Shown here: positions 10,103-52,552 of the stretch, piece by piece | How positions within the stretch are numbered: position 1 is the stretch's first letter | Layout of the letters: the number at the start of each line of letters is the position of its first letter | Assembly: GCA_029263335.1 (NCBI GenBank) | Contig: JAJCXS010000147.1 | Location: forward strand, 2,682 to 66,681 | DNA: 64,000 nucleotides | Source: Acidobacteriota bacterium | Lineage (GTDB): Bacteria > Acidobacteriota > UBA890 > WLXD01 | Direction of reading: 5' to 3' | The notes under the pieces: generated by a model | Seen by the model: the letters and a program-made list of their open reading frames with translations, nothing else | Databases searched by the model: none | What the model was told of the DNA's origin: nothing | Translations under genes and position numbers: made by a program

Positions 10103-10334
10103 GCTTTCGCGTCAGCGCCGTGCGCAAGGGGGGGTAGTGAAGTGGGCGAGAACCGGGGGTCTTGCGAGTTCTCACAATCACTGTAACAAGAGCGGGGGTG
10201 ACGATTCAGGGGCAAAAAGGACCCGGCGCAGGGGTTTCTTGGGGGGGAATGTAAAGAAACGTAAAGGTCCACTGAGAGTGCAACGAGTCGCTAGACTGTG
10301 CCCTTCGTAGAAGCCCTTTTTGTGGAGCCGACTC

Positions 10335-13300: not shown

Positions 13301-13652
13301 GAGCGGATCGGGCGGTGACGCATTCCCGTTCTTCTTCCGACACGCGGGCCTCGGGCCGCTCATTGGCACCCGCACCTGGGGCGGGCTCATCGGTTACACG
13401 GGGGCACCCTCGCTGGTGGACGGAGGCGGACTCGCCATCCCGACCTTCGGCATCTACTCGCTCGAGGGTGAGTGGATCATCGAGGGCTATGGCGTCGATC
13501 CCGACATCGAGGTCGTCGACAATCCCACCGACCTGGCGAACGGCATCGATCCACAGATCGAAGCCGGGATCACCGAGATCCTACGTCTGCTCGAAGAGAA
13601 CCCGCCAACGCGCCCGGCTCGACCGGCTGCACCGGATCGTTCCCAACGCTAG
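10335..13652 (+). CDS. Tricorn protease homolog (S41-family, beta-propeller + PDZ + C-terminal peptidase)
   Basis: Signal peptide. Characteristic N-terminal block (…SATHIVFVYAGDIWVAAKAGG…RLT..TGEEQFPRFSPDGSRIAFQANYDGNVDIYVV), a PDZ region and a C-terminal S41 domain (…NGWSGSGGDAFPFFFRH…GTRTWGG). There is an acidic low-complexity insertion (DADGNSDADADADADADADTDED). Confidence 0.85.
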   Translation: MRHSSRLVVAALALLALGLLVVCPGVVSAQVDARMLRYADVSATHIVFVYAGDIWVAAKAGGVAQRLSTPTGEEQFPRFSPDGSRIAFQANYDGNVDIYVVPTLGGQVERLTHHPLPDRMLDWYPDGNSILIASFMQTEKMRYRKFFRIGANGGLPERLPVPYGEFGALSPDGGTIAYMPKSRDFRTWKRYRGGTAPEIWLFDLDSYAATNITQNMANDGHPMWHGDTLYFLSDRGPRERANIWAYDRIAGTSRQVTQFTDFDVRFPAIGPQDLVFEAGGRLYLLDLASEQMNEVQIEVVTDRSTLKPYSERVGGQLASAGISPSGARAVIEARGEMFSVPAEKGIVRNLSRSSGFAERWPQWSPDGRWIAYFSDETGEYELTVRAADGSGEPQRLTTLGEGFRYTPYWSPDSKKLAFIDQAMQIWIHDRDAGTTTKIDEGLYLYHGGLANFEPDWSSDSNWLAYSRGLPNRHNAVFLYDTSGGERHQVTSGFYSEASPRFDPEGEYLYVLTNRDLSPSYSDTDSTFIYANTTNVAAVALRNDVPSPLAPESDEEQVADDAEGDADDENDADGNSDADADADADADADTDEDKGLRIDLEDFERRLVVLPVAAGNYAGLDAVSGKVIYHRAPRTGADGGDSPILFWDLGEREEKTIIGDAGGFAVAASGKKMLVQSGPRLGIISVAPGQKLSAALDLASLEMVIEPAAEWRQIFNDAWRLFRDYFYVANMHGTDWQNIGERYSELLDDVVTRWDLDFLIGELIGELNAGHTYNRSGDTEQAAQRNVGMLGVDFELNDGAFRIARILDGAAWDSEVRSPLALPGVNVSEGDYLLAVNGVPLDTGRDPWAAFQGLAGDVVELTVSDTPSMEGARRVLVEPLGSEVRLRNLAWIEANRQRVDDATDGRVGYVYVPDTGTGGQTELMRQWANQIDKEALIIDERFNNGGQIPDRFIEMLDRPLYSYWGVRDGDDWQWPPVAQIGPKVMLINGWSGSGGDAFPFFFRHAGLGPLIGTRTWGGLIGYTGAPSLVDGGGLAIPTFGIYSLEGEWIIEGYGVDPDIEVVDNPTDLANGIDPQIEAGITEILRLLEENPPTRPARPAAPDRSQR

Positions 13653-13691
13653 AGACAAGGTTCGTAGCGATTACCCCCTAGGAGAATTCCC

Positions 13692-14039
13692 GTGGTTGGA
13701 CCGCCAGCGATGAGTTCGGATCACGTCGTCACGCTGTTTTGGAGCCGTCTGCGCGACGATCTTGGAGAGGACGGCTTGGCTGATTATCAGCGCGATCTCG
13801 AGCACATCCTCGCGTTGGCTCGTGCCATGCCCGGATTCGTCTCGGTAGCCCCTTACACAGGCCCGGATGGCGAGCGTCTGACGATTGTCGTGTTCGACTC
13901 CGAGGAATCCCAGACCGCCTGGCGACGACACCCTGAGCATGTGGCGGCACAGCGTCGCGGCAAGGATCGGTACTACGCTGGTTATCAGATCGTCGTGGCC
14001 GGCCCGAAACGGTTTCACGCCGGTGGACCAGCGCAGTAG
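13692..14039 (+). CDS. Antibiotic-biosynthesis-monooxygenase (ABM) domain protein
   Basis: ABM-like ferredoxin-fold sequence (VVTLFWSRL…FVSVAPYTGPDGERLTIVVFDSEESQTAWRRHPEHVAAQRRG). GTG start at 13692 is preceded by GGAGA at a 6-nt spacing. Confidence 0.6.
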   Translation: MVGPPAMSSDHVVTLFWSRLRDDLGEDGLADYQRDLEHILALARAMPGFVSVAPYTGPDGERLTIVVFDSEESQTAWRRHPEHVAAQRRGKDRYYAGYQIVVAGPKRFHAGGPAQ

Positions 14040-14053
14040 AGGGCTGCGTCAGG

Positions 14054-16753
14054 TCAATCCGTTCGTAGCGACTCAACCGGGTCGATGGTGATCGCGCGTC
14101 GTGCCGGGACCAGACTCGCGGTCAGAGCGACCAAGGCCAGCACGGTGGCGGCGCCGATGTAGGTCGGGATGTCGGTGGCGCTAACGTCGTAGAGCAGCGA
14201 GGCGATCAAGCGGCTCGCCGCCGCGGCGATCGCCAGACCGACAACGATACCGGCTCCGACCCAGACCATGCCCTGGCCCACGACCCAGCGAGCCACGTCG
14301 GTGCCGCGGGCGCCGAGCGCCATACGGATGCCGATTTCACGGCTGCGCTGGGCCACCGAATTGGCGACGACGCCGTAGATCCCGATCGCGGCGAGTGTCA
14401 GCGCGAGGCCAGCGAACAAAGCCACCAGCATGGCGGAGAAACGGGGTTCGGAAACAGAGGCGTTGACCAACCCGTCGAGGGTCACGACATTCTCGATGGT
14501 CTGATCGGGGTTCACCGCCCAGATCGCATGGTTCACTGCGGCCTGGAGCCCTGTGGGCTCGGTACTCGTGCGGACCACCAGCGTCATGCCGGAGCGGGTG
14601 ATCTGCTGGACGGATGTGTAGAGAACGTTGACCACCTCTTCGTCGAGGCTCGACTGAGTCACGTTGCCGACGACACCGATGATGGCGACTTCGCCGTTGC
14701 CTACGCCCAGCCGGCTACCTACGGCGTCGCCGTCGGGGAAGTGCCGGTCGGCCATCGCCTGGTTGATGATTCCGCGCAGTTCGCCGGCCTCGCGGTTGTC
14801 GCGCTCGTCGAAGCCGCGGCCGGCCATCAGCGGAATCCCCATGGCGGCAAAAGCGTCATCGGAGGCCCAGCGTAGATATGCCGTGGGCCATTGACCTTCC
14901 GGTGGTGCCGGATTGCCCACAACCATGAAGTCGAGGTCCTCGCCCTGGAAAGTGTCCGGGGTGAGTGGCATCGGTCGAATGAGCCCGGCGATCTCGACGC
15001 CGGGTACGTCGCGGACACTTTGCAGGATGTCGCCAAAGAACTGGCTGATGTCTGCGGAGCCTTCGAGCTTGTACCCCGGTGCCGAGACCTTCATGGCGAC
15101 GGTGTGGTCGCCATCGAAACCGGGCTCGACCTGGAGCAGCTCGTTCAAGCTGCGCAGTAGCAGACCGGCTCCGATCACGAGAACAACGACCATCGCTACC
15201 TCGGCGACAATCAAGAGGCCGCGCATGCGGACCCGCCCCTCGGTCTGGGAGCCGCTGCCGCCGGCCAGTTTGAGTTCGCTCTGCAGGTCGCCGCGCCAGG
15301 CGCGCCAGGCCGGCGCGAGGCCGAACATCAGCCCGGTGAGAAGCGAAGCCCCGAGCGAGAACGCGACGACCGCGGGATCGATGCCGACCTCCGCCAGACG
15401 GGGAACCTCGTCAGGTGCCGCAGCGACCAGCAGCTTGATCGACAGGCTACCGAGTAGAAGACCTGCGCAGCCGCCGATGGCGGCAAGGAGTGCCGACTCC
15501 GTGAGGAGTTGGCGGGCCAGTCGTCCTCGGCCCGCCCCCAGCGCCGCGCGCACTGCGAATTCGCGAGTCCGGCCCTGGGCCCGGACCAGCATCAGGTTGG
15601 CGACGTTGGCACAGCAGATCAGCAGCACGACGCCGACCGCGCCGAGCAGAGTGAGCAGGCCAGTGCGGGCGTCACCCGTCACCTGATCGTGCAGCGGCAC
15701 GATGCGCACCTCGGTGAGTTCGTCGTTGCTGTCTGGGTACTCCGCGGCGAGGCGCTTGGCGACCGTATCCAGATCGGCCTGCGCCGCCTCCATGGTCACT
15801 CCCGGTGCCAGTCGACCGACGGCATGGAGGAAGCGCACCCCGCGCCGCCGCGGTACTCCGCTCTCGGGTATGACCGATAGCGGTACCCAGAGTTCGCCCT
15901 CCGCGGACGGATAGTCGAAGGTCGCCGGCATGACACCGATCACGATGTAGGGCGTGTCACTGAGCGTGATCGTGGAACCAACGATCGCCGCGTCGCCGGC
16001 GAAGCGCGTCTGCCACGTACCGTAGGAAAGCACTGCGACGGCGTTGTCGCCTTCCGCATGGTCCGCCACGACGATCGGGCGACCGAGAAGCGGCGCGACC
16101 GCTAGGGTCTCGAAGAATCCTTCCTCGACGAAGTGGGCCAGTACGCGGTCGGGCCGGTCATCGCCTGTCAGCACGAAGCCTCCCATTGAAACAGCCGGGA
16201 AGGCGGTCATCTGCGAGAAGGACTCGCCTTGATCGCGCCAGTCGCGAAAATCGTGCGGCGATACCGTGCCGCGCACACTGTCGCGCACAGGATAGGCCGA
16301 GTAGATGCGCACCAGTTGCTCGGCGTCCGGATAGGGTAGCGGCCGCAGGAGCACAGCGTTGACCATGCTGAAGATCGCGGCGTTGGCACCGATGCCGAGC
16401 GCGATGGTGAGGATCGCGGCGAGCGCAAACACGGGACTCTTGAGCAGCGACCGGAAACCGTAGCGAATGTCTTGCAGGATCGATACGAACATTTCAACAG
16501 GTCCGAGTCGGGGAGATTCGGGGTTGGGCAGCGGCGCACGGCGCAGCGGCCGAGCGTCGCGAGAAAGGGCTAGACGAAGGGCTTGCGCCCAGTACCAGAG
16601 CGCGGTCGCAAGTCGCGAATGTAGCCTGCACCGCTCAGCGAACTCCTCGCGCAGATCGCCGACGACGAAACTGCCAACGCCGGAGGCGGCGAGCCGTCGC
16701 CGCAGCCAGCGCTCGACGAGGCGCGGTGGGGAAGGAATCGAATCGCTGGACAC
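14054..16753 (-). CDS. ADOP-family FtsX-like duplicated ABC permease with N-terminal 'permease prefix' domain
   Basis: 899 aa. N-terminal cytoplasmic prefix (…[32 protein letters not shown]), then two FtsX modules with large periplasmic loops. Confidence 0.85.
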
Positions 16754-40017: not shown

Positions 40018-42953
40018 CCGCTGTTCTTGAGCGCCTCGTGTGGCGCGATGCGAAGCGCGCGCAGCGTCGGCGCGAGGCATGCGGGAATCCCGACCAGCAC
40101 TACGACGCCAATGGCCGTGAACAAGGTCAGTAGCACCGGGGACTGGGCGGCCGGGCCACCTTCGTCGGGTGCTGAGTTCGCGAGAAGGAGGGCCAGGGGC
40201 AGGCCCAGCGCGATTCCGACCGCGAACTGGCCCATCGCGCGTTTCGCCACGGTGAAGGCGATGTCGCGTCGCTGCGCCCCGATCGCCGAGCGGAGTGCGA
40301 GTTCCGCGCTCCGCTCGGTTACCGAGAATGACAGGATTGCGTAGACACCCGAGGCCGCGAGCACCAGCAGCACGGCCACGAGAACGCCGCTGCCGAGACT
40401 CACAGCCTGCATCACGTACCAGTCTCCCTCGACCACCTGATCGAGTGCCATCGGCGTGGCGATGACTGCCAGGGGGTCCACCTCGTGCAGGATCGCACGC
40501 AGTCGCGGCGCGAACGCAAGGGGATCGTCGCCCACGTGAATCGCCAGTCGTACCGGGTTGGCGTCTCCGGGCGCGAGCGGGTGATAGATGCCCTCGCCCG
40601 AGAACGGCCTTACGAGCGTCATGCCGAGATTGTCGACCAGGCCGACGACCTCGTGCCACGGACCGGGCTTGCCATCGGGGCCCTGCCGATGACGAAGGCG
40701 TCGCCCGATGGGGTTGATTCCACCCAGTACGTTTTCCACGAACGGCGTGTTGACGATTACGACGTGGCTGTTGTCGCCAAGATCGCCGGCCTGGAAGCCG
40801 CGACCCGCCAGGACGGGCTGCTCCAGCGCTTCGAAGAAACCGATGTCGACGTTCGCTGAGCGGACTCTGTACGCCACCGGTTCTCCCTCGGTAGCGTCGC
40901 CTTCGATCTCGATCCAGCGGGCGGCGTGGTCCATGCGCGGTAGCGCCGTGGCGACGCCGACGCCGCGAATGCCGCCCTCGGCGTTCAGACGATCAACCAG
41001 GGCGATCTGGGTAGCGCCCATGCGGGCCGCCAGGGCACCGGAGTCGGATGACCCTGCTCCCGTGGCCGCCTCGATTCCAGGGATCGCAAGCTGCGCCGAC
41101 AGATACTGGTCGACCGGAATTCCGGCGACGTCGTCGGTGCCCGCGATGTTCTTCACCACGTCGGCCATGGTGAGGGCGAAGCCCACGATCGCCACCGCCA
41201 GCGCCACGTCGGCAACGATCAGGACACCGGAAACGCCACCATATCGGGTGCCGGTTCGTTGCGAGCGAGAGCGTTCGATGTTCGCGCGAATGCCCTGCCC
41301 GGTGAGCTTGAGGGCGGGCACAACGCCGACCCCAGCGGCGCTGAAGACGGCCAAGGCAAACGCCCACGACGCCGTCCACGGCGTGACGCTCAGGTCCACC
41401 CAGTAGGGAAGCTGCCCGTCCGCGAGTCGATGCATGAGGGGGCTCAGAGCCTGGTCGATCAGTAGCAGGCCAAACCCGGCGGCCAGAACAGCAAGTACCA
41501 GCGACTCAACGAACATCTGCCCGACGATGCGACTCCGCGCTGCGCCCAAAGCGGTTCGTATCGCCAGCTCGGTGGCGCGGTTCGAGTTGCGCGCGAACAT
41601 GAGCATGCCGACGTTCGCGCACGCAACGCTGAGAAGAACCAGGGTCAGGAGCTGGGCAACGTAGAAGTCGGGCTGACCGCGCATGCCGCTCTTCGCCAAA
41701 CCGAAGGCCAGCAACGCGAAGGGCGTCACCTCGGCGCGGAGCCGCGCGTGCGCCTCCGGAAACTGCGTTGCCATGGGTCCGTCGATGGCCAGCAGCTCCG
41801 CCTCGGCAGTGGTCGCATCCGTACCCGCGGCCAGGCGCCCGAAGATGTTGAGCGCGCGGCCGTGCCGGGGCTCTTGCGCCGGGTTCTCCCGCAGCGGTAG
41901 CCATAGCTGATGTTGCACGGGAAACCGGAAGCTGTCCGGCATGACGCCGACGATGCGATGCGCGCGATCACCGATCTGCAGTGTCCGCTGTAAGACGTCA
42001 GGGTCTCCTGCGAGTCGCGACTGCCAGAAGGTGTGGCCGATGACGACTACCGCAGGTGCATCGACGTCTTCGTCGGCCGGTTGCAGGGTCCTGCCGAGCA
42101 GGGGACGCGTACGCAGGATCTCGAACGCCGACGCCGTGGCTTCAGCGCCCGACGACGGGGCTACACGCTCGCCTTCCACCAGCACGTTGAAGGCTCCCGT
42201 CCGGAACGCGCCGAGCGTTTGGAACGAGGTCATCGCGCCGCGCCAACGGTCGTAGTCGTACATCGTCGTGCGATCGGTGCCGCTGGTCGCGGTATTCCAG
42301 TACCGAAGCAGCCGAATCTGGTCGCCGTCCTCGACAGGGAGCGGAGCCTCGAGGGCGTTGAACACGTGGAATGGGGCCAGCCCGGTCGGAATTCCGAGCG
42401 TGAGCGTTGCCGCCGCGACCAGCGAGAGTGACGGGTGTTTTACCAGCATCCGCACACCCGTCTTGACGTCCAAACGAGATATCGGCAGGTAGACCCGGAG
42501 TCCGCGTGCGCGCCACATCGCCATCGCCGACCCGACGACGTTGGTCGCGTAGCGCCAGTGCGCCCGCCGCGTCGGTATGCCGCTATCGAGGTCGTGTTGC
42601 AGCGCGTCGTCCAGATCGCGCAGCACGAAGGGAGCCTCGTGGCCTCGGATGCTGAGCATCGCCAGACGGCGCAGCACGGCCCGCACGGAGAAGCGTGGCG
42701 CCGTCATCGTTCTTGCGCCAGCTTGTCGAGCTGGGCGAGCAGTCCGCCCGCCATCGCCTGGATGGTCGAGTAGGTTTCCTGCAGCGCGCGCGCGCCAGTC
42801 GGCTCCAGCCGATAGTACTTGCGTGGCCGTCCCACCTGGCCGGCCGTTGTTGCGCCGACGCGGGCATTCACCATGCCGCGGTCCGCGAGTCTCCCGAGAG
42901 CCGTGTAGATCGCCCCGGAAGATGCCGTGCGCCCCGTGCGCTCCTCGATACAC
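40014..42953 (-). CDS. ADOP-family FtsX-like duplicated ABC permease with prefix domain
   Basis: 979-aa track ORF. It has a prefix-like N-terminus and two FtsX modules. The start is uncertain. MTAPRFSV, about 85 codons in, is plausible. Confidence 0.8.
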
Positions 42954-43048
42954 TGCCGGATCGCACCGCCGTACGCGTTGTCACCGAGCTCCACGACGGC
43001 GAAGAGAATCAACTGTTCGAACTCACCTAGATAGCTCAATGCCGGCAT
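42704..43048 (-). CDS. PadR-family transcriptional regulator
   Basis: [54 protein letters not shown]. Overlaps the start region of the downstream permease. Confidence 0.85.
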   Translation of the reverse strand: MPALSYLGEFEQLILFAVVELGDNAYGGAIRQCIEERTGRTASSGAIYTALGRLADRGMVNARVGATTAGQVGRPRKYYRLEPTGARALQETYSTIQAMAGGLLAQLDKLAQER

Positions 43049-43267: not shown

Positions 43268-43453
43268 ATGATGAAACGTGGAACCGGCACCGGCATGGGC
43301 ATCGCACTCGGAGTGGCGCTTGGAGCGGCGTTCGGCGACGTGGGCCTCGGTCTTGCTCTCGGCCTCGCCATCGGCGCGGCCTTGGATGGCGCGAATCATG
43401 TCGCTGCCGGCAAGACCGACGGCGGCGAAGCAGACAACGACGGCGCCCGCTGA
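43268..43453 (+). CDS. Small Gly-zipper membrane protein (hypothetical)
   Basis: 61 aa, GxxxG-rich (GIALGVALGAAFGDVGLGLALGLAIGAALDG). Short, so low confidence. Confidence 0.3.
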   Translation: MMKRGTGTGMGIALGVALGAAFGDVGLGLALGLAIGAALDGANHVAAGKTDGGEADNDGAR

Positions 43454-43534: not shown

Positions 43535-43552
43535 ACGGGAAGGTAGCCCTAA
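43535..43552. repeat. attL-like direct repeat: copy of the tRNA-Glu 3' end
   Basis: GGAAGGTAGCCCTAA (with flanking CGG) at 43538-43552 is repeated at 52472-52486. The right-hand copy is the 3' end of the tRNA-Glu gene. Confidence 0.5.
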
Positions 43553-43916
43553 TGTCTCCGAGTTGGAACAACCTGGCGGCATGGCTCCTAGCGGTCGAGG
43601 AACTCCAGCCGGCGGCATCTGCATGCTGAGAGAGCCCCGAAGTCAGTCGGATGCCTTTCCCTACATGTTCCCTACCGGGATATGAACCATGTATGGCAAG
43701 CAAGTGCGGGAGCCCCTGCAAGAGCCGCGTAACCGCTGTGTAGCCACTAAGTGCGGCAGTCCTCTGCCAGACCGCTCGAATGAGCGGGATAGCGAGCGCC
43801 TGCTGCGCGGTGAGACCATCGCCGGTGATGAATTCATGGCCAACTAGGTGGCGGAGAGCTTCAGCGGCGGTCGCCCCCGGCGAAGCCCAGAGCGATTCGT
43901 CAGCTGTTGGCTCATG

Positions 43917-44660
43917 TTATGCGGACTCGCTCGGCGCGCCTCCGAAGAGATGCTCGATCAAGCCCGCAGCGAACGGGAGCGCTCGTAGGAGTTGGTGAGT
44001 GTCCACTAGCTTCTTCGCGTGCGCGTGAAGGGCAGGCTCATCGCCAACAGGTATGTTCCGCACAGTGGATTCCCCGGTGCGTGTGTCGATGACGCGCACC
44101 TTGCCGGCAGTGGTCTGAGCCGTGATCTTCTTGATGTTGTAGTGGCTGTACGGATTGCGCACCTCATCCTTGAACCGCAGGAGTTCCTCGCGGAGGTGCT
44201 CCGAGATGATCCCGGCCTTGCGAGCACGAAGCACGGCAGGGTGGAACGTCATGCTCTCAAACTCGTCCCATTTCTCGGCGTCGTAAGCCCACTTTCCGAG
44301 TTCGGCCTTGTAGGTAGCCTGTTTCAATGCGAATTCAACGAGGATACCGAGCAGAGTCACCGCGGCGCCGTGCAAGCCGAAAATCGCACACTCGATGATC
44401 TCGTTCCAAAGAAAGCCCAGGTTTGGCTGGATGTGTTGAGGGATCTCAGGGAGATGCGGGATCAACACGGAGGCCGCCCTCCGACGGGTCTTGAATAGCC
44501 GGTCGAGGGTCTCTTCGGGCGGCAGCTCGGTCGGAGGATCGAACTCGACACCGGCATCCTTCAGATCGTCCAGCGCGCCGGGGCCAGCAACGATTACATC
44601 AGACCCCTTGGCCATCTTCTCGATCACGTCGGCTAGATTCGGCGGCTCCTTGTCCGTCAT
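43917..44660 (-). CDS. Hypothetical protein (island cargo, third gene of the minus-strand cassette)
   Basis: 247-aa ORF with no recognisable motifs. Lower GC than its surroundings. Confidence 0.5.
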   Translation of the reverse strand: MTDKEPPNLADVIEKMAKGSDVIVAGPGALDDLKDAGVEFDPPTELPPEETLDRLFKTRRRAASVLIPHLPEIPQHIQPNLGFLWNEIIECAIFGLHGAAVTLLGILVEFALKQATYKAELGKWAYDAEKWDEFESMTFHPAVLRARKAGIISEHLREELLRFKDEVRNPYSHYNIKKITAQTTAGKVRVIDTRTGESTVRNIPVGDEPALHAHAKKLVDTHQLLRALPFAAGLIEHLFGGAPSESA

Positions 44661-44870
44661 GCCCCCTCCTTTTCCGCATCATGGCTCAGAGCCTCAGCTG
44701 CAGCGCGGCGGCTCCCTCTAGTAGGAACTGCGAAGGCTCTGGATTTCCGAATTGTTCGGAGTGTTTAGCGCCGCCGGCTTCGGGCTCATGTTGTCCATCC
44801 GGCGCTGTTGCGATGAAGCCGCTACCGGAGACGAAGGATCGGACTCTCGAATGAGCCGGCCGCGCTGGTT

Positions 44871-46571
44871 TCAGAAGTTCAGTCCCAAGAGCCCCAGCAT
44901 CCATTCGAGGACCGAGCCATCAAGAGGTACCAAGCCGAGCGTCAGCACTACGAGGGCGACGGTCAGACCTACGAGGATCAGTGTGAGCCGCCCCACCTTC
45001 CCTTGCAGGTGCACATTCTCAATCGTGCCGCGGACCGTCCCGTGCTGCAGGAGGAGATCTCGCAACAGTCGCTCCAACTGCGTTAGGCGGACGCTTCGCC
45101 GGAACACGCTCGTACGCAGCGCTTCGGCGAGTGTCGTGTCCGCCGAATAGAGTTCCGACACCACCGGCTCGAATCGGCCAACCTCGGACTCGAAAGTTCC
45201 ATCGTCCGCAGCGATCTGCTCGAGGTCCGCAACAGTCGTCGCAACGTCCAAGCAAACCGACAAGTCTCCGTAGAGACCGGGCAGAGACCTGTGGGCCATC
45301 TCCTCGGCGCTACTCGGGAGACGAGCATCCCGAAGCACTTGGAGTCGCTCCTCGTACGTTGTAATCAGGGCGAGGGTCGCCCAGCGGCTGAGTAGGCCGG
45401 TCAGGTGCCCGTTCGTGGAGCTCGTGAGAGCGTGCTGAAGGTTGCCGCTGTAGTTCCGGAGATCCCCCTCGGACAAGTTGTCTTCGTGCAGCGTGGCCGC
45501 TGCGTGGAACCGCGAGCCCTCGTATCCCAGCAACGGCCAGGCGAACCGCAGGCCAGGATACGATTTGCTCGCCCAAGCATCCGAGTCAGCCTGCATGTTG
45601 AGCAACATGAGCCAGTCGGGGGTTGGACGTGCGTCGACGAACGGCTCGGTCCCAGTAAACGTCACGAGTTCGCACGTCGGCAGCGCGTCGCCGTCTGTTC
45701 CTTCCGTGAAGACACCGGGAAGATGCTCTCGGAACCAGTACGCGGCGCGCTTACGCCACTCATCGCGGTGTTTCCAGATCTCAGCGCTCTTCTGATTCCC
45801 CGAACTGAGTAGTCGGAGGTGTTTGGAGTCAGGAGGGGCCGCTTGGTGTCGCCGGTCCCGCCGCAGTATCTGCTCGTAGCGGCCGGTTGCCTGCTCGTTT
45901 AGGACGAACCCGACGACGATCGCAGTTACCGATGCGGAGAGGCCATACATCGTTGCCATCGCGTGATCCACGTCTCTGGGAAGTGGGACATTGCGCGTCC
46001 CCCACCACGACGTAGCCCCTGGTTCCCGGAGGGGCCCGAGGTTGTACCAGCCGCCACCAAACGGGGCCCCGCGTAGACTCTTGAGATGGGATGTGGGCGT
46101 GCTTCCGGCTATCCCGGGATCCTCGGTCGTCCAACCGAGATCTTCGAAGCTCTGAGCCAACCTCGCCGCATGCGGCGGCGCGTAGAGCTCCACGGCCCAG
46201 ACGCAACGCAGGTGGATGGAGTCATCCTCGCCCGGCGTGGTTCTGCGGTTGTCTTCTTCGTCAAACTCTCGAGTCTCACGCAGCAGCTCGCGCATATCCG
46301 GGTGCCGGACGAGGCGCGGCAGGTAGTGGTGGAGCGTCTCGTGGCATTGCCGCCGAGTCCGGGTAGCGATCGAAGCGAACCGTGTTCCGGCCTTCCGTGT
46401 CCCTCTCCATATCGTCTCCCAGAGGCGTGTGACCAGCGCAGCGGCCCGTGAGTAGGCGCGTCCAACTCCACTCCGAATCAACTTCCAAGTGCGTGTGGCT
46501 CGCGCAGCAAGCCACGCCTTGGCCTGTCGAACACCGCTCCACATCGAGTCCCGGATGCTACGCAGGCTCAT
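44871..46571 (-). CDS. Hypothetical protein with C-terminal transmembrane anchor (island cargo)
   Basis: 566-aa ORF. Single C-terminal TM helix (RLTLILVGLTVALVVLTLGLV). Otherwise no recognisable domain. Confidence 0.5.
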   Translation of the reverse strand: MSLRSIRDSMWSGVRQAKAWLAARATRTWKLIRSGVGRAYSRAAALVTRLWETIWRGTRKAGTRFASIATRTRRQCHETLHHYLPRLVRHPDMRELLRETREFDEEDNRRTTPGEDDSIHLRCVWAVELYAPPHAARLAQSFEDLGWTTEDPGIAGSTPTSHLKSLRGAPFGGGWYNLGPLREPGATSWWGTRNVPLPRDVDHAMATMYGLSASVTAIVVGFVLNEQATGRYEQILRRDRRHQAAPPDSKHLRLLSSGNQKSAEIWKHRDEWRKRAAYWFREHLPGVFTEGTDGDALPTCELVTFTGTEPFVDARPTPDWLMLLNMQADSDAWASKSYPGLRFAWPLLGYEGSRFHAAATLHEDNLSEGDLRNYSGNLQHALTSSTNGHLTGLLSRWATLALITTYEERLQVLRDARLPSSAEEMAHRSLPGLYGDLSVCLDVATTVADLEQIAADDGTFESEVGRFEPVVSELYSADTTLAEALRTSVFRRSVRLTQLERLLRDLLLQHGTVRGTIENVHLQGKVGRLTLILVGLTVALVVLTLGLVPLDGSVLEWMLGLLGLNF

Positions 46572-46694
46572 GGTTCCAGGAGTGACTGAGTGAGCCGGTC
46601 GGCGAGACTGCCGCGTGACAAGAGCGCCACGTGCCCTCCGAATGTTTGAGTGCTAGCAACCGCGCAGAGGATCTGCAACGTTTGTGGTCGGGCC

Positions 46695-49600
46695 TCATGC
46701 CCCTTGCTCGGTGCCAGATAGTGCCTCGAGGAACTGGCGCAGCGTGATGATGCGCTCCGTCGGGAATGGGAGCTCGGCAGCGAACTGGAAGGGAACGGGC
46801 CTGTTAGTGACTAGGTAGCCGGTCACCTCGACACTCCGAACATCCCGGTGAGGTAGATGGTTGACCCAGTCAGCATGAGCTTCCAGCCATTCCAGTCGTC
46901 GAACGTGTCGCCCGAGACGATCCGTCGCGTCGCCGGCGAAGTCCACCAGCCGATCTACAATACCGCTCAGGCCGTAGCTCGGCTGCAGCCGCTTGCACTC
47001 CACGGCCAGCACCGTGCTGCTCCCGGCTCGCCAAGCCAGGACGTCGATGTCGCCGAGTTCGTCCGGTGCCCCAAGCCGCGCCATAGGCACCTCCGTCTCG
47101 GTGGACCACCCCAACTGTCGCAGTGCATCGGACACCGAGATCGTGAACTCTCGTCCGCGTTCGTCGACTCGGCGCCCGACCAATCTGCCCATCTGCGGGC
47201 TCTCGAAGTACTCCGGACGCAGAGCGCCGGTCTCTATCCCATGGGTGATGTAGCTGAATGAAGACGCTAGTGAACTGACGCCGTACACGACGGTTGAATC
47301 AGCATCTCCCAATTGCACCAGTGGTCGCGAGACCACCGACAGCTTGCGGCCGTACTTCCATGGGTACCAGTCGCGGCTCGAGTATCCCTCGGGGGCTTGG
47401 TCCCAGCGGTTGCGGGGCCAGAGGGAGAGGCGGTCAAGTAGACGCCTAGCTCGCTCCTCGGGCAGGCCGCTGCTGATGGCGATCTGCGCGAACTCCTCGC
47501 TATGGGACTCGACTACCGCCTGCTCCGCATCGATCGCCTTGTCAATCAGTGAGGCCACGAACCCGCCTAGTTCCTGAGGCGTGGCTCCATACTCCGCTTC
47601 GAAGGCGGCGGTGGTTCCTGGCTCGTCCAGCCAGAGTGGTCCGCCTCCAGTTCCCCCCGTCACTTCGAAGTGGTGTTCGTACTCGTGATCGGTCTCGTGG
47701 AGGAGATGCTCCTGCGTCGATCTGGTGTAGTGAGTCGCCAGATCCCCGAGGGAGTCTCCGTCTATGTGCACCTCGCCGTTCGCGCAGATCACGGCTCGCT
47801 CGATCAATCCGCGGTGCGCGGCGTCTGCGTAACCCCCGAAGCGGCAAAGCGTTCGGCATCCCGCGAGCAGGTCGTCGTATTCGGATTGCTCAGGGGATGG
47901 ATGTCCGTCAAGGGGCGCCTCACAGACCGCGATCTCCGCGATGACTTTAGCCGCCTGCGATATGAGACCGCGTTCCGCCTCTTCACGGGCCGCAACGTCC
48001 GTCGCTTCGTTCCCGTAGAGTGCCCCGAGCGCTCTCGCGGTCCTTCGGAAGTGTGCTCTTTGCTGGGCGATTTCTTCCATCACGTGCAAGGAACGGGTCA
48101 CAAGTGCGTGGCGACCAAACTGCCCGATCTTGGTCCGCAATCGATCCGCGACGTCGGCGGCGCATACTTTCAGCACGTCGCGGCAGCGTTCACTGGTAGC
48201 CAACGTCTCTGCCGGCTGCCCGCCCGCCAGGGCCATTAGCCAGGGAGCATCATCAAGCCCGTGCAGACGTGACTTTGTGCCGGGCATGTGCGGCCGAAGC
48301 AGGTCGAGCGGGCTCGGCCTGTCGAAGAGGTGGATGTGCCGGATGTCCTGGTTGGGCATGAGGCTGTGCTCCAGTCTCCACCGCTCCGCCTCGCGCTCAT
48401 CGGCGCTAAGGTCTGGCGCTACCAGGCGCAGAATCGACTCTGCCAGCATCCGGAACAGTTCACGATCACCGTGGTTCGCAGGTTGGGTGAAGTAGTGGCG
48501 GTAGCCCGGGTAGATCCGTACGAGCACGGTGTTTTCGCGGCAAGTGGCCTCCATCGCGACATCACCGACATCTTCGTCGGGCTCTCCAGCGTCCTCCCAG
48601 GCTTCCGGCTCCTGAATATCGATGAGGAGCCGAGGCGCCGGCGTGCGCGGCCAGTTCGTGGCGAGGATCCTGACGATTGCTGCGGTCCACTTTAGAGCCG
48701 CCTCCCAGAGCAGGTACGCGACTTCGCTGGGGCCGTTGTTGCCCGCTTGTGCGCATACCCAAACGAGAGACTGGTCGGCCTCGATGACGCCGGCCAGGGT
48801 GCCGCTCCTCGCGGAATCCGCAGACGCGTATACGGGCTGGCCGGTAAGTGAATCGAACAGCGCATCCGCGTCCAAGCGAGATACCACTGTGGCCGGTTCG
48901 CCGGGTGTGTGGGGCGCGCCATGCTCATCGTGAAGGCTCTGCGTCCGGCAGCGTTGTTCGTGAAGTCGCATGCCCTCGACAAGAAACAGGCCGCGAACTG
49001 TGGGGAGGGGAAGGTCGCACGGGATCGGCCGTCCGTCATTGAGCATGAATTCCGCAACCACGGCCTCAAAACCGTAGGCGGTTTGTACGCGAAGTCCCGC
49101 AGCTTCTAGTCTTTCTAGGTGTCGCTGGAGCTTCCAGATCCACAGGAAAGTGCACTCTCGGACCAGCGCCATTAGGCTGAACTCGTAGAGGCCTAAGACG
49201 ATGACGTCTTCACCGGCCGCGGAGGCAAGCTCGGCTTCGATGTCGCCGCCACACCCGCAAAGTAAGAGGAGCGTGAGGGCGTCTTCCTCGGCCTCTCCAA
49301 GGATCTCCGCAAACCGACGCTGCTCGGTGTCGGTCCTCGTTATCCGAACATCTAGGTGTCGCCCGCCAGCGTCACCTGGCTCCGGGGTCAAATGAAGCAC
49401 CGTCGCCTGTTTCTGCTCATCGAACTGGACTCGGAGCCTACTCAGGCCCGGCACACCGGTAATGGACGGATCCTCTAGAAGAGTCGTGGCACCTCCGAAT
49501 CGAGGCATACAGTCACTAGCGACCTTCCGGTGCGCGGACGCCATCGCCTGGCAAAGCTCCCCGCCCCGGTTCACCCGCTCGAAAGAACGATAGATGTGTC

Positions 49601-50336
49601 GGCGAATCGCTGGTCCGAGGTAGCTCGGGACAGGGAGAACAAAGCTGGATCGCACACGGACTAACGGTCGCGTTAATAGCGGCGAGTCGGACAGGCGTGC
49701 GTCGGAGAGGTGCTGGCGTTCATCGACGTCCACGCAGAAATGGACGAGACTAGACGCGTCGATCCCAAGGTGCTCCAGTTCTGCGGCTTCGAAAGTAACG
49801 CGGTCAGCCAGGTCGTCCAGATCGACCGTCTCGATAACAGCCTCGATAGAACTGGGCTCGTCTGCCGTGGCCCATCTCTCGACTCCGGAGCGCGCCGCGA
49901 CGGCCCGAGTTAGACGAAGCAGAGCGTCCAGCCCGGATTGGCAATCGACCGGAGAGTTAGGTGGGAGCGTCAAGGTAGCGTTGATGAACAGCTGTGTGTA
50001 GAACGCGTTGCCTGTATTGATGCCCTGGAGCAGCAAGTACGTGTCGTCGGCGGCCACAGGCGCGGCGAACACGTCTTCCGGGGGGTCCTCCATGCGGGCG
50101 ACTGGGCAAGACCCCAGACCGTCTGCGCCGAGGAACTGGACCAGGTCCTGCGCGTTTGCTAGTTGACCTCCAGCCGAGACGGCAGCGGCGACGTGGCTGG
50201 CGCACTCCAGCCGAAGTTGGTTCGTCTGCAGTTCGGGAAGTGTTTGGAGACCGCCGATCACGGCGACGGTTCGTTCACTAAACGGGCGCAGCGAGCTTCG
50301 AAGGGTGCCGCCGGTGAATTGACTCACGCTCGGCAT
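46695..50336 (-). CDS. Large hypothetical protein (1213 aa) with C-terminal PD-(D/E)xK restriction-endonuclease-like motif (island cargo)
   Basis: C-terminal …APDELGDIDVLAWRAGSSTVLAVECKRL… fits PD-x(n)-D-x(n)-ExK. No Walker A/B motif found. The rest is unassigned. Confidence 0.55.
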   Translation of the reverse strand: MPSVSQFTGGTLRSSLRPFSERTVAVIGGLQTLPELQTNQLRLECASHVAAAVSAGGQLANAQDLVQFLGADGLGSCPVARMEDPPEDVFAAPVAADDTYLLLQGINTGNAFYTQLFINATLTLPPNSPVDCQSGLDALLRLTRAVAARSGVERWATADEPSSIEAVIETVDLDDLADRVTFEAAELEHLGIDASSLVHFCVDVDERQHLSDARLSDSPLLTRPLVRVRSSFVLPVPSYLGPAIRRHIYRSFERVNRGGELCQAMASAHRKVASDCMPRFGGATTLLEDPSITGVPGLSRLRVQFDEQKQATVLHLTPEPGDAGGRHLDVRITRTDTEQRRFAEILGEAEEDALTLLLLCGCGGDIEAELASAAGEDVIVLGLYEFSLMALVRECTFLWIWKLQRHLERLEAAGLRVQTAYGFEAVVAEFMLNDGRPIPCDLPLPTVRGLFLVEGMRLHEQRCRTQSLHDEHGAPHTPGEPATVVSRLDADALFDSLTGQPVYASADSARSGTLAGVIEADQSLVWVCAQAGNNGPSEVAYLLWEAALKWTAAIVRILATNWPRTPAPRLLIDIQEPEAWEDAGEPDEDVGDVAMEATCRENTVLVRIYPGYRHYFTQPANHGDRELFRMLAESILRLVAPDLSADEREAERWRLEHSLMPNQDIRHIHLFDRPSPLDLLRPHMPGTKSRLHGLDDAPWLMALAGGQPAETLATSERCRDVLKVCAADVADRLRTKIGQFGRHALVTRSLHVMEEIAQQRAHFRRTARALGALYGNEATDVAAREEAERGLISQAAKVIAEIAVCEAPLDGHPSPEQSEYDDLLAGCRTLCRFGGYADAAHRGLIERAVICANGEVHIDGDSLGDLATHYTRSTQEHLLHETDHEYEHHFEVTGGTGGGPLWLDEPGTTAAFEAEYGATPQELGGFVASLIDKAIDAEQAVVESHSEEFAQIAISSGLPEERARRLLDRLSLWPRNRWDQAPEGYSSRDWYPWKYGRKLSVVSRPLVQLGDADSTVVYGVSSLASSFSYITHGIETGALRPEYFESPQMGRLVGRRVDERGREFTISVSDALRQLGWSTETEVPMARLGAPDELGDIDVLAWRAGSSTVLAVECKRLQPSYGLSGIVDRLVDFAGDATDRLGRHVRRLEWLEAHADWVNHLPHRDVRSVEVTGYLVTNRPVPFQFAAELPFPTERIITLRQFLEALSGTEQGA

Positions 50337-51116
50337 CGAAGAAATCCTCTGCTAATGGGAAGGCTCAGGCGCCTCAGTCGCAGACTTGTCTTGCCGATGA
50401 GCCCGCCGACTAGGCGCAGGAACAGAGCTGAGGTCTCGACCCGGCGCGCCGACTGGAATAGCTGGTCCCGGCTTGTCGAAATCAGTCGGAGATCCCGGGT
50501 GCGACCGCAGTGTCGTACCTCAGAGATAACCACTGTGGACAGCCTTTTGCGATGTTCTTCTGCCGTTGTCCAGGCGCGTGGTCACGGGCGAGGTAGCCGA
50601 TCGCCAGATTGTGACGGGATCGCGTTCTTCGCGGGGACGCGGGAGATGTGCGCTGCTTAGGTCGGCACACACCTGCGCGCCGCTTGGCGATCCCGGCGAT
50701 TCCTTGACCCGCAAAATGCTCGGAAGAAAAGCGGGCCGCGCCTTCCGCCAGCGCGGGCGTGCAGCGCGAGCTCTTCACGCCTGACGGCGACGACACAGCG
50801 AGTGCTCAGCGACGTGTGGGGCGCCGTGGAGCGTCCTCCGGGGGAGACGCTCGTCGCCGCTGCTTGCGGAATCCGTGTCCGGAGCTCCAGGAAGTGTCGG
50901 AGTCGGGTGGCATCAGAGCAGCGATCCAGTCGGTGATGGCTAGCGAGGCCCTATTCTGCCCATGCAAGCCGACAGATTCTGTCGCTATAGGCGCAGGGGA
51001 AGCAAGTTCGGTCTACTTCCCACGTTGGGGGCGAATACGATAGATTTCATTCTGACGTCGCCCGGCGCGGGTCAACCACCAAGACAACTTGTTTTCTCGA
51101 CGCCCCAAAGCGCTGC

Positions 51117-51365
51117 TTGCAGTCGCTGGAGGGCAGGGGAACCGGGTCCGACGGGCTCGGTCTTGGTGGGATGGTCTCAGTAGAAGAGTGCCGGGCACTT
51201 ATTAGAAGCTCTGGGCTGCAGGGACGCGAATTCTCGGACGATGAGATCCGAGAACTACGCGATCATCTCGCCGAGCTCACGCGCCTACTGCTGACCGCTG
51301 CCCCTCCGGCGGCGGTACGTGCGACGGACAAGACAACGACGTCTCCGGAGACTTGCGATGGCTAG
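51117..51365 (+). CDS. Small hypothetical protein immediately upstream of the recombinase (possible regulator/excision factor)
   Basis: 82-aa ORF ending 8 nt into the recombinase start. No motif assigned. Confidence 0.25.
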   Translation: MQSLEGRGTGSDGLGLGGMVSVEECRALIRSSGLQGREFSDDEIRELRDHLAELTRLLLTAAPPAAVRATDKTTTSPETCDG

Positions 51366-52515
51366 TCGAGCTGTCGGGTATGTGAGGGTCTCGACTCCAG
51401 AACAGGCGGAGGCCAACACAAGCCTGGCTCACCAAGAGCGGGAGATTCGGCGATTCGCAGATCGCTCCGACATTGAGCTTCTCGAGGTCTTCGTTGAACG
51501 CGGGGTCTCCGCTCGTTCTCTTAAACGCGTTGAACTGAACCGACTAAGGACCTTCTACGCCGATAGGTCCAACAACGTCGATAGCCTGATCATCTGGAAG
51601 TTCGACCGGCTGTGTCGGGACGTTCGAGGCCATGTCGTACTTCGTGCCGAACTCCACGCCGCTGCGATCCAGGTCATCTCGGTTACTGAACCGACGTCGG
51701 ACGATCCTGCGGGGGTTCTGATGGAGAACATTCTCGCCTCGTTCGCCCAGTTCGAGAACGACGTCAGAGCCGAGCGTACGCGGGCCGGCATGGGATCAAC
51801 GGCGAGGCGCGGACGTTGGCAGACTAGGGCTCCGTTCGGATACCGACGGGGCTCGGCTGACGGTCCCAGCCTTCTGTTGCATGAGACGGAAGCGCCAGTT
51901 GTGCGCGAAATATTCGAACGTTCCGCCGGGAACTGCAGTCGCGAGCAGCTGGTACGGGAATTTGAAGCCCGCGGCGTTGTGTCCAAGACAAACCGACCGT
52001 TATCGGGGAAGGCTTTGCATCGGATCCTCACGAACCCGGTCTACCTGGGCAAGGTCGTCTGGAAGGGGAACACGTATCCAGGCGATTTCGAGCCTATCGT
52101 CGGCTCGCCCCTGTTCCAACGGTTGCAGGGGCGCATCCGGCGCGGCGCCCGCGTTCCCTCGGGCTCCGACAAGCGACAACAGGAGCGCATCTCTGCCGAG
52201 CGTTCTCGGATCGAGAAGGTGGTCTACGAACTCGAGGCTGCTACGAGTCCCGCGTACATCAACTATCAGTGGCTGACCCAGATGCTCACCGAGCCTGCCG
52301 AGATCTGGGACCGACTAGACGGTCCAGCGCGGCGGACATTTCAGCGGCTTGTCTTCCCCTTCGGACTACCTGTCGCGGGTCGGGCAGTTGGAACAGGCGA
52401 ACCGGCGCCTATCTTCCTACTAGTGCGGGAGAAAACGAAAAGCCGAGACGTGCAAGACGCCTCGGCTTCCCGGAAGGTAGCCCTAACGGGATTTGAACCC
52501 GTGTCTCCGCCTTGA
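51358..52515 (+). CDS. Large serine recombinase (resolvase/invertase catalytic domain + recombinase domain)
   Basis: N-terminal catalytic motif AVGYVRVSTPEQ with Ser nucleophile, …IIWKFDRLCRD…, then a recombinase domain (…GRWQTRAPFGYRR…). The ORF runs into the tRNA gene on the opposite strand. Start chosen at MASRAVGYVRVS. Confidence 0.85.
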   Translation: MASRAVGYVRVSTPEQAEANTSLAHQEREIRRFADRSDIELLEVFVERGVSARSLKRVELNRLRTFYADRSNNVDSLIIWKFDRLCRDVRGHVVLRAELHAAAIQVISVTEPTSDDPAGVLMENILASFAQFENDVRAERTRAGMGSTARRGRWQTRAPFGYRRGSADGPSLLLHETEAPVVREIFERSAGNCSREQLVREFEARGVVSKTNRPLSGKALHRILTNPVYLGKVVWKGNTYPGDFEPIVGSPLFQRLQGRIRRGARVPSGSDKRQQERISAERSRIEKVVYELEAATSPAYINYQWLTQMLTEPAEIWDRLDGPARRTFQRLVFPFGLPVAGRAVGTGEPAPIFLLVREKTKSRDVQDASASRKVALTGFEPVSPP

Positions 52516-52552
52516 GAGGGCGGTGTCCTGGGCCAGGCTAGACGATAGGGCC
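52478..52552 (-). tRNA. tRNA-Glu (anticodon CUC)
   Basis: Hand-folded cloverleaf. Acceptor GGCCCUA/UAGGGCU (G1·U72), anticodon stem CCGCC/GGCGG with loop CUCUCAA (anticodon CUC), T-arm ACGGG-UUCAAAU-CCCGU, discriminator A. CC is encoded but not the terminal A. Confidence 0.7.

Follow-up and report, generated by a model that had tools for sequence, protein, structure and literature searches.

We analyzed a 64-kb window (the whole stretch of DNA under study, 64,000 nucleotides (nt) of contig JAJCXS010000147.1 from an Acidobacteriota bacterium), in which three co-directional open reading frames (ORFs) encode proteins of 1213, 566 and 247 amino acids (aa). The gap between the 1213-aa and 566-aa ORFs is 123 nt, and that between the 566-aa and 247-aa ORFs is 210 nt. 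As shown in Table 1, the three genes make up the entire cargo of a putative integrative element that lies between two 15-nt direct repeats at a tRNA-Glu gene, next to a serine recombinase gene. An earlier note, made from the letters alone, had proposed that these genes form an undescribed three-gene defence or toxin system carried on a tRNA-integrated element, and that none of the proteins has a recognizable domain apart from a PD-(D/E)xK nuclease pattern at the C-terminus of the largest one. The three ORFs and both gaps were recovered exactly where that note had placed them. The nuclease pattern (PDELGDIDVLAW…VLAVECK), the single C-terminal transmembrane (TM) anchor of the 566-aa protein and the tRNA, recombinase and repeats of the element were likewise located, and no Walker motif ([AG]xxxxGK[ST]) was found in the 1213-aa protein or in either of the other two. 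The part of the proposal that concerns defence-type cargo on a tRNA-integrated element, including a large nuclease-tipped protein, thus stands. The parts that called the cargo undescribed, devoid of recognizable domains and a single system do not. With tools, all three proteins could be placed, the 1213-aa protein as Upx, the 566-aa protein as CorA-like in fold and the 247-aa protein as HEPN-like in fold.

Table 1. Features of the element and its cargo, in window positions
Feature	Position	Strand	Basis
1213-aa Upx homolog, ORF	46695-50336	-	ORF list
Putative Upx nuclease catalytic core, D1096-I-D1098 … E1113-C-K1115	46992-47051	-	SeUpx alignment
N-terminal Upx stretch, residues ~83-120, with EDPPEDVF motif and replaced second-site residues (also residue 144)	49976-50090	-	Alignment
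566-aa protein, CorA-fold-like with one C-terminal TM helix, ORF	44871-46571	-	ORF list
Single C-terminal TM helix of 566-aa protein, residues ~528-550	44922-44990	-	Kyte-Doolittle peak 2.68, translation
247-aa HEPN-fold protein, ORF	43917-44660	-	ORF list
HEPN Rx4H motif RNPYSH, R168-H173 of 247-aa protein	44142-44159	-	Translation and conservation
Left direct repeat, putative attL	43538-43552	+	Exact 15-nt repeat GGAAGGTAGCCCTAA
Right direct repeat, putative attR, overlapping tRNA-Glu 3′ end	52472-52486	+	GGAAGGTAGCCCTAA
Serine recombinase (Resolvase and Recombinase domains), element integrase, 398 aa, probable start M14 (51358)	51319-52515	+	Pfam PF00239 1.5e-31, PF07508 4e-15
tRNA-Glu(CUC), integration target	52476-52552	-	ARAGORN; Rfam RF00005 61.8 bits

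The Upx homolog and its active site

Judged by homology, the 1213-aa protein is a full-length, divergent Upx homolog. It matched the PADLOC Upx model PDLC02221 (7.7e-108) and the NCBIfam family NF042954, 'anti-phage protein Upx' (2.1e-128), with residues 21-1186 aligned to profile positions 32-1223 of 1240. Its sole relative in the PDB was 9wuf_A, the cryo-electron microscopy (cryo-EM) structure of Salmonella Upx (SeUpx), which was found with E = 4.5e-78 and aligned collinearly (residues 21-1186 versus 50-1251). Furthermore, a match to Pfam PF28173, 'Upx-like', is precomputed in the protein database for exactly this sequence. Our local copy of Pfam returned 0 matches for the protein although PF28173 exists, so that an absence of Pfam domains was not taken at face value. 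Note that the word-indexed protein search, whose index limits sensitivity, gave only three Upx matches. Upx is a single-gene defence whose only reported associations are with Avs1 or with a second Upx (PMC13601566). It works as a monomer that combines a sensor for terminase with a PD-(D/E)xK nuclease (PMC13099982, PMC13601566). With the structure and the phage trigger of Upx published in 2026 (PMC13099982, PMC13601566), the nuclease of the claimed new three-gene system dissolves into a known protein.

In SeUpx, D1161, E1176 and K1178 were identified as the PD-(D/E)xK active site by structure and mutation, and defence was lost in the E1176A and E1176A/K1178A mutants (PMC13099982, PMC13601566). 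These residues aligned with D1098, E1113 and K1115 of the window protein, which lie in DIDVLAWRAGSSTVLAVECK (residues 1096-1115 of 1213), with GDIDVLAW…VECK here facing GDIDLLAW…IECK in SeUpx. By homology, the catalytic Asp is thus D1098 of 'GDID' and not the D of 'PDELG'. D1098, E1113 and K1115 were also invariant in a three-sequence alignment of the window Upx and its two nearest database relatives. Conservation of the D/E/K residues among homologs, the lack of which the earlier note had named as refuting its proposal, was seen in both alignments.

Zhou et al. described a second, N-terminal, non-canonical nuclease site in SeUpx, consisting of D122, D127, R129, E147 and D173 (PMC13099982); this site has been reported for SeUpx only. 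Both phmmer and MAFFT placed A95, T99, L101, N119 and R144 of the window protein at these positions (0 of 5 conserved), and the 'dual-nuclease' feature probably does not apply to this Upx. Adjoining the replaced residues is an EDPPEDVF motif, which was invariant across four very distant Upx proteins and may be the functionally important element of the N-terminal region. In the model of Evans et al., the N-terminal part of Upx senses the phage by binding its large terminase at the ATPase domain (PMC13601566). Because the second-site residues are replaced, the N-terminal region of this Upx is better read as a sensor, and their loss together with the invariant EDPxEDVF motif fits the model of Evans et al. 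better. As for activity, SeUpx was characterized in vitro as a Mg-dependent 3′-5′ single-stranded DNA exonuclease that prefers replication intermediates (PMC13099982), and in vivo the binding of terminase leads to toxicity consistent with programmed cell death (PMC13601566). The divergent Upx bears on the clash between two published models, a dual nuclease activated by gp16 versus a terminase sensor with a single nuclease. The Upx of a high-G+C environmental bacterium has kept the catalytic triad and EDPxEDVF but none of the proposed second-site residues, which speaks for the sensor model in the family at large.

The two neighbouring proteins

We characterized the 566-aa protein by homology search and structure prediction. 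A word-indexed search found only the protein itself, suggesting an orphan, but this was rejected by an exhaustive HMMER search, which gave 903 relatives (cluster representatives with E<=1e-3), 181 of them at E<=1e-30. Most of the relatives are 500-530 aa long, and their alignments span residues ~80-545 of the window ORF. No homolog has a counterpart of its first ~70 residues. A conserved block, [HY]R.FP….P, begins upstream of M93, and homology to the relatives sets in at residues ~56-80. The block and the unmatched first ~70 residues together place the true start somewhere between M1 and about residue 75. The copy in the protein database is 474 aa long and starts at M93 (window positions 46293-46571 encode residues 1-93).

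The AlphaFold2 model of the 566-aa protein (predicted local distance difference test (pLDDT) 90, predicted template-modelling score (pTM) 0.83) has an alpha/beta domain at residues 118-362 and, C-terminal to it, very long helices; the membrane segment RLTLILVGLTVALVVLTLGLVPL lies in the final one (481-547). The predicted protein thereby has the arrangement of CorA, a cytosolic alpha/beta domain and a long stalk helix that enters the membrane. All 50 Foldseek matches listed were CorA or ZntB, with a best E of 4.7e-3, probabilities up to 0.95 and low TM-scores. Sequence comparison gave fainter signals of the same kind, namely a weak, collinear match between the family profile and M. jannaschii CorA in its stalk/TM1 region (E≈0.2) and matches of single members to the PADLOC CorA-like models (E≈0.003-0.03). 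Pfam CorA matched neither the protein nor its family, and no Pfam, NCBIfam or PADLOC model (PADLOC 2.0) was found for the family. Two features mark ion conduction in CorA, the GMN signature that follows TM1 and the presence of a second TM helix. Within the C-terminal 120 aa, 82 of 84 members of the 566-aa family had exactly one hydrophobic segment, followed by a median of 15 residues; the two C-terminal TM helices of CorA were not found in these members, and only one of the 84 had G[MI]N in this stretch. The 566-aa protein, as modelled, is CorA-like in fold; by the features that define the CorA family, it falls outside it.

Homologs of the 566-aa protein recur in defence or plasmid contexts (loci L017, L026, L027/L028, L029-L031, L033 and L034). 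Specifically, co-directional homologs lie directly 3′ of Gabija GajA/GajB on a relaxase-bearing element (gap of 47 nt), of a type ISP restriction-modification (R-M) enzyme (85 nt; an SLFN/AlbA_2 protein then follows) and of an N6/N4 methylase pair (27 nt). Another lies directly 3′ of a PLD-SNF2 helicase and an Eco57I-type methylase, and a reverse transcriptase of 1269 aa is encoded close by. Within the defence island of an Agrobacterium plasmid, a homolog stands amid a SIR2/AAA-ATPase cluster, a DUF2290/ATPase pair and an HsdR-like gene, and an 8.5-kb mobilizable MOBV plasmid, which also bears RelBE, has a homolog as its main cargo. Some homologs stand alone between genes of the opposite strand. 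The scan of viral contigs gave nothing for this family, and a literature search for a link between CorA-like proteins of this kind and defence islands was empty. The 566-aa protein is most likely an independent, mobile, membrane-acting module, and this is the weakest step of our interpretation. At L017, the CorA-like homolog and the PLD-SNF2/methylase pair adjoin the reverse-transcriptase-domain protein of 1269 aa (12603-16412 of that locus, minus strand) and a DUF4238 protein (10252-11121, plus strand), and this dense defence island may hold further uncharacterized systems.

For the 247-aa protein we collected 56 homologs of ~243 aa from metagenomes and a few genomes, and the 50 that were aligned are 34-60% identical to the window protein. 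R168, N169 and P170 were invariant in this alignment, and Y171, H173 and Y174 were conserved in at least 90% of the sequences; RNPYSH is the one place in the protein where Rx4-6H occurs. Modelling with AlphaFold2 from the same alignment gave an all-alpha HEPN fold (pLDDT 91.3, pTM 0.85). Sub-threshold Pfam matches were obtained for DUF4145 (14 of 50 members, best 6e-4), HEPN pEK499_p136 (7 of 50) and HepT-like_2 (2 of 50). No curated HEPN model was significant for the family, the PADLOC and PDB sequence searches were empty, and NCBIfam gave no match for this family or for the 566-aa family. Thus, of the three families, the PADLOC run that the earlier note had suggested yielded a defence match for the 1213-aa protein and no model for the other two. 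HepS provides a precedent, a single HEPN protein in which the sensing of a phage protein is combined with tRNA cleavage (PMC13043305). By analogy, the 247-aa protein is most likely a metal-independent, stand-alone HEPN RNase, predicted to act as an abortive-infection or toxin module.

Homologs of the 247-aa protein were found beside GmrSD and a RiboL-PSP HEPN gene, upstream of a KAP NTPase gene, adjoining DUF433/PIN and adjoining RelB-like pairs. In two related contexts from one metagenome sample, the homolog lies 3′ of genes for three TIR proteins. In both copies, L037 (2740-8738) and L038 (167-6165), a co-directional row comprises three TIR-domain proteins, a 652-674-aa protein with a faint PHP match in one copy and a 103-aa protein, with the HEPN homolog last. 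A tyrosine integrase gene lies just upstream of the row in L037, and HigB/helix-turn-helix genes come after it in L038. The copies are all from related contigs, and the row may be a multi-gene system or merely an island. A conserved partner of the 247-aa family was considered and rejected, as the upstream neighbours (383, 391, 271 and 272 aa) and the downstream neighbours (67, 61 and 86 aa) are mutually unrelated. These neighbours are also unrelated to the 566-aa protein and to anything in 43540-43930, and no small downstream antitoxin-like gene or other conserved neighbour was found for the family. Nothing was found for the 247-aa family in the scan of viral contigs, or for the 247-aa protein itself by tblastn of phages and plasmids.

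Co-occurrence of the three genes and the integrative element

The comparison covered five other Upx loci, nine of the 247-aa family, which represent six distinct contexts, and 26 of the 566-aa family. A tblastn with all three proteins over the first 36 (354 kb; 5 Upx, 5 of the 247-aa family and 26 of the 566-aa family) showed no locus that carried more than one of the three genes. In the four later 247-aa-family loci (L037-L040), the gene lists, rather than tblastn, showed no gene of Upx size (>1,100 aa) or of 566-aa-family size (~500 aa). The closest of the Upx loci, in a metagenome-assembled genome of Candidatus Palauibacter, was the sole locus from the scan of genome contigs with an Upx alignment. 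Two metagenome contigs held Upx together with many insertion sequence elements and an MmeI-type R-M gene, and with GmrSD and MmeI-type genes, respectively, and two further loci were on plasmids of Bosea and Sinorhizobium. No relative of the 566-aa or 247-aa protein was present at any of the five, nor did any partner gene recur among them; the neighbours were unrelated, and the regions were largely variable, mobile-element or defence regions. The earlier note had itself named a lack of co-conservation elsewhere as refuting its proposal, and a single three-gene system is not supported by these loci.

The recombinase, the tRNA target and the repeats, that is, the features that characterize an integrative element, are all present, and the mobility of the element is read from sequence. 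Together they delimit an element of ~8.9 kb (43538-52486). Only two copies of the repeat were found in the window, even when one mismatch was allowed, and 0 copies were expected (100 shuffles). The G+C content of the element is 0.624, versus 0.651 and 0.658 in the flanks. The recombinase gave CcrB/XisF-like matches in NCBIfam, and the reconstituted attB is predicted to read …CGGGAAGGTAGCCCTAACGGGATT…. The recombinase ORF crosses the right repeat and ends within the tRNA-Glu gene. A split integrase of the SSV type was considered and rejected, as the circular junction would lengthen the ORF merely from 398 to 414 aa. No tRNA remnant left of attL was detected by ARAGORN or Rfam.

Several further features were observed in and around the element. 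On the opposite strand at 52472-52436 (within 52436-52515), a strong 16-bp hairpin is followed by a T-run, which looks like a terminator of the tRNA-Glu gene that the element would supply. The ~1 kb between the start of upx and the recombinase (50337-51318) contains no convincing ORF and no Rfam match, and presumably holds divergent promoters or a regulatory region. The start of the recombinase gene is overlapped by an ORF of 82 aa (51117-51365). A small Gly/Ala-rich ORF on the plus strand (43269-43443; MMKRGTGTGMGIALGVALGAAFGD…), read by eye, is located just beyond the left repeat, with the element on one side and a PadR-like regulator gene (42704-43048) on the other; it may encode a small host membrane peptide.

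Interpretation and comparison with known systems

Our reading is that the ~8.9-kb element carries a miniature defence island, made up of Upx as its core and two further single-gene modules, each independent of the others; we give this reading a probability of about 0.7. It builds on the homology, the conserved catalytic residues, the folds, the element boundaries and the lack of co-conservation that were observed here; the activities and triggers of all three proteins are those that we infer. The serine recombinase would have inserted the element at the 3′ end of tRNA-Glu(CUC). By homology with characterized Upx, the N-terminal and middle sensor region would bind the large terminase of the phage at its ATPase domain, and this binding would release the C-terminal D1098/E1113/K1115 nuclease, leading to degradation of DNA and abortion of the infection. 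The 247-aa HEPN protein would be a latent RNase that acts alone, as an abortive-infection or toxin layer, through RNA cleavage comparable to that by HepS. The cytosolic domain of the 566-aa protein may sense something and its oligomer may perturb the membrane, which is the weakest step of the scheme. RNA cleavage by the HEPN protein and membrane perturbation by the CorA-like protein would probably add two mechanistically different layers to Upx.

Several observations weigh against this reading. The Upx identity and the presumed activity of the 1213-aa protein were derived from homology, the identity to Salmonella Upx is ~25% over residues 403-1212, and the two nearest database relatives are only 29% identical. 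The NCBIfam NF042954 score of 429 bits does not reach the equivalog cut-off of 1900, which places the protein among the distant members of its family rather than among close orthologs of SeUpx. The defence roles of the HEPN and CorA-like proteins were likewise deduced from fold and neighbourhood, and several loci of the 566-aa family have no recognizable defence neighbour, their surroundings being protein kinase, ABC binding protein, PD40 and lysozyme genes or plasmid backbone. In addition, the three genes of the window are co-directional with short gaps and no terminator was predicted between them, so that co-transcription and a lineage-specific functional link are possible. The same arrangement, together with the fact that the genes are the whole cargo of the element, speaks for one undescribed multi-component system in which the nuclease is the effector and the membrane and small proteins are obligate partners. 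However, Upx is known as a one-gene defence (PMC13601566, PMC13099982), two of the three genes were never seen together at the 5 Upx loci, the 26 loci of the 566-aa family or the 9 loci of the 247-aa family (5 of the 9 by tblastn), and each family occurs in many different contexts, which makes a single system very unlikely.

It is somewhat easier to imagine, but still unlikely, that Upx works normally and has recruited the CorA-like protein, and possibly the HEPN protein too, as an accessory, the CorA-like family being a portable accessory or back-up placed 3′ of nuclease defences. The position of CorA-like genes directly 3′ of, and co-directional with, Upx, Gabija, the type ISP R-M enzyme and the methylase pair, and also 3′ of the PLD-SNF2 helicase and methylase, would be explained in this way. 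The family nevertheless has no fixed partner, some of its members being alone between opposite-strand genes or the main cargo of a small plasmid, and independent systems gathered in defence islands would show the same adjacency. We regard it as quite unlikely that only Upx is defensive, with the CorA-like protein being either a membrane or ion-transport protein or a factor that serves the element in maintenance or exclusion, and the HEPN protein an orphan toxin or a nuclease-dead scaffold. The CorA-like loci without recognizable defence neighbours and the absence of PADLOC and NCBIfam matches for either small family point in this direction. Against it, the GMN motif and second TM helix are absent from the CorA-like family, the catalytic R and N of the HEPN family are invariant and its H is at least 90% conserved in 50 aligned members, and members of both small families were repeatedly found in variable regions with many defence or toxin-antitoxin genes.

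Beyond the preferred reading of three independent modules, we put forward only tentatively, as a proposal that may well fail, that the CorA-like family is a widespread membrane-acting anti-phage module, working alone or as a second layer 3′ of nuclease defences (Upx, Gabija, type ISP R-M, type II R-M-like and PLD-SNF2 systems), and that the HEPN family with its RNxxxH motif is a new single-gene abortive-infection RNase. The core finding is a divergent Upx of a known family, and its two neighbours are reasonable new candidate families. What novelty is left lies in these two small families, above all in the recurring place of the CorA-fold, single-TM family beside diverse defence systems. Both this family and the stand-alone HEPN family are inexpensive, well-defined candidates for defence screens, as leads and not as results. 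The ~8.9-kb serine-recombinase element at tRNA-Glu, for its part, is a compact vehicle that shows how defence genes are bundled and moved.

The 566-aa protein differs from CorA, ZntB and Mrs2 and from the CorA-family membrane effector of type III CRISPR (PMC12255297) in having one TM helix instead of two, no GMN motif and no Pfam CorA match. It is also ~150 aa longer and has no CRISPR or signal-generating partner nearby. The 247-aa protein resembles HepS (PMC13043305), AbiV and the HepT toxins in being small and stand-alone, with a helical HEPN fold and a conserved Rx4H motif, in having no adjacent MNT-type antitoxin and in its location on a mobile element. The element as a whole resembles the tRNA-integrated islets that use large serine recombinases of the CcrB/XisF type, sharing with them a recombinase gene beside the tRNA, short repeats that duplicate the tRNA 3′ end, a G+C content below that of the flanks and defence-type cargo. 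Unlike such islets, it is very small (~8.9 kb), its recombinase is short (398 aa) with no zinc-ribbon match, and the recombinase frame runs across the right repeat into the tRNA gene. Compared with Upx itself (SeUpx, PDB 9wuf; Gao_Upx), the 1213-aa protein differs by its ~25% identity to SeUpx and its score below the NCBIfam equivalog cut-off. It is nevertheless collinear with Upx from end to end, alike in size (1213 versus 1272 aa in SeUpx) and equipped with the same C-terminal PD-(D/E)xK core, in which D…ExK is aligned, and with the invariant EDPxEDVF motif in its N-terminal region. Like Upx, it has neither an NTPase domain nor a recurring partner gene, and its gene lies where those of the family typically do, in variable, mobile-element or defence regions.

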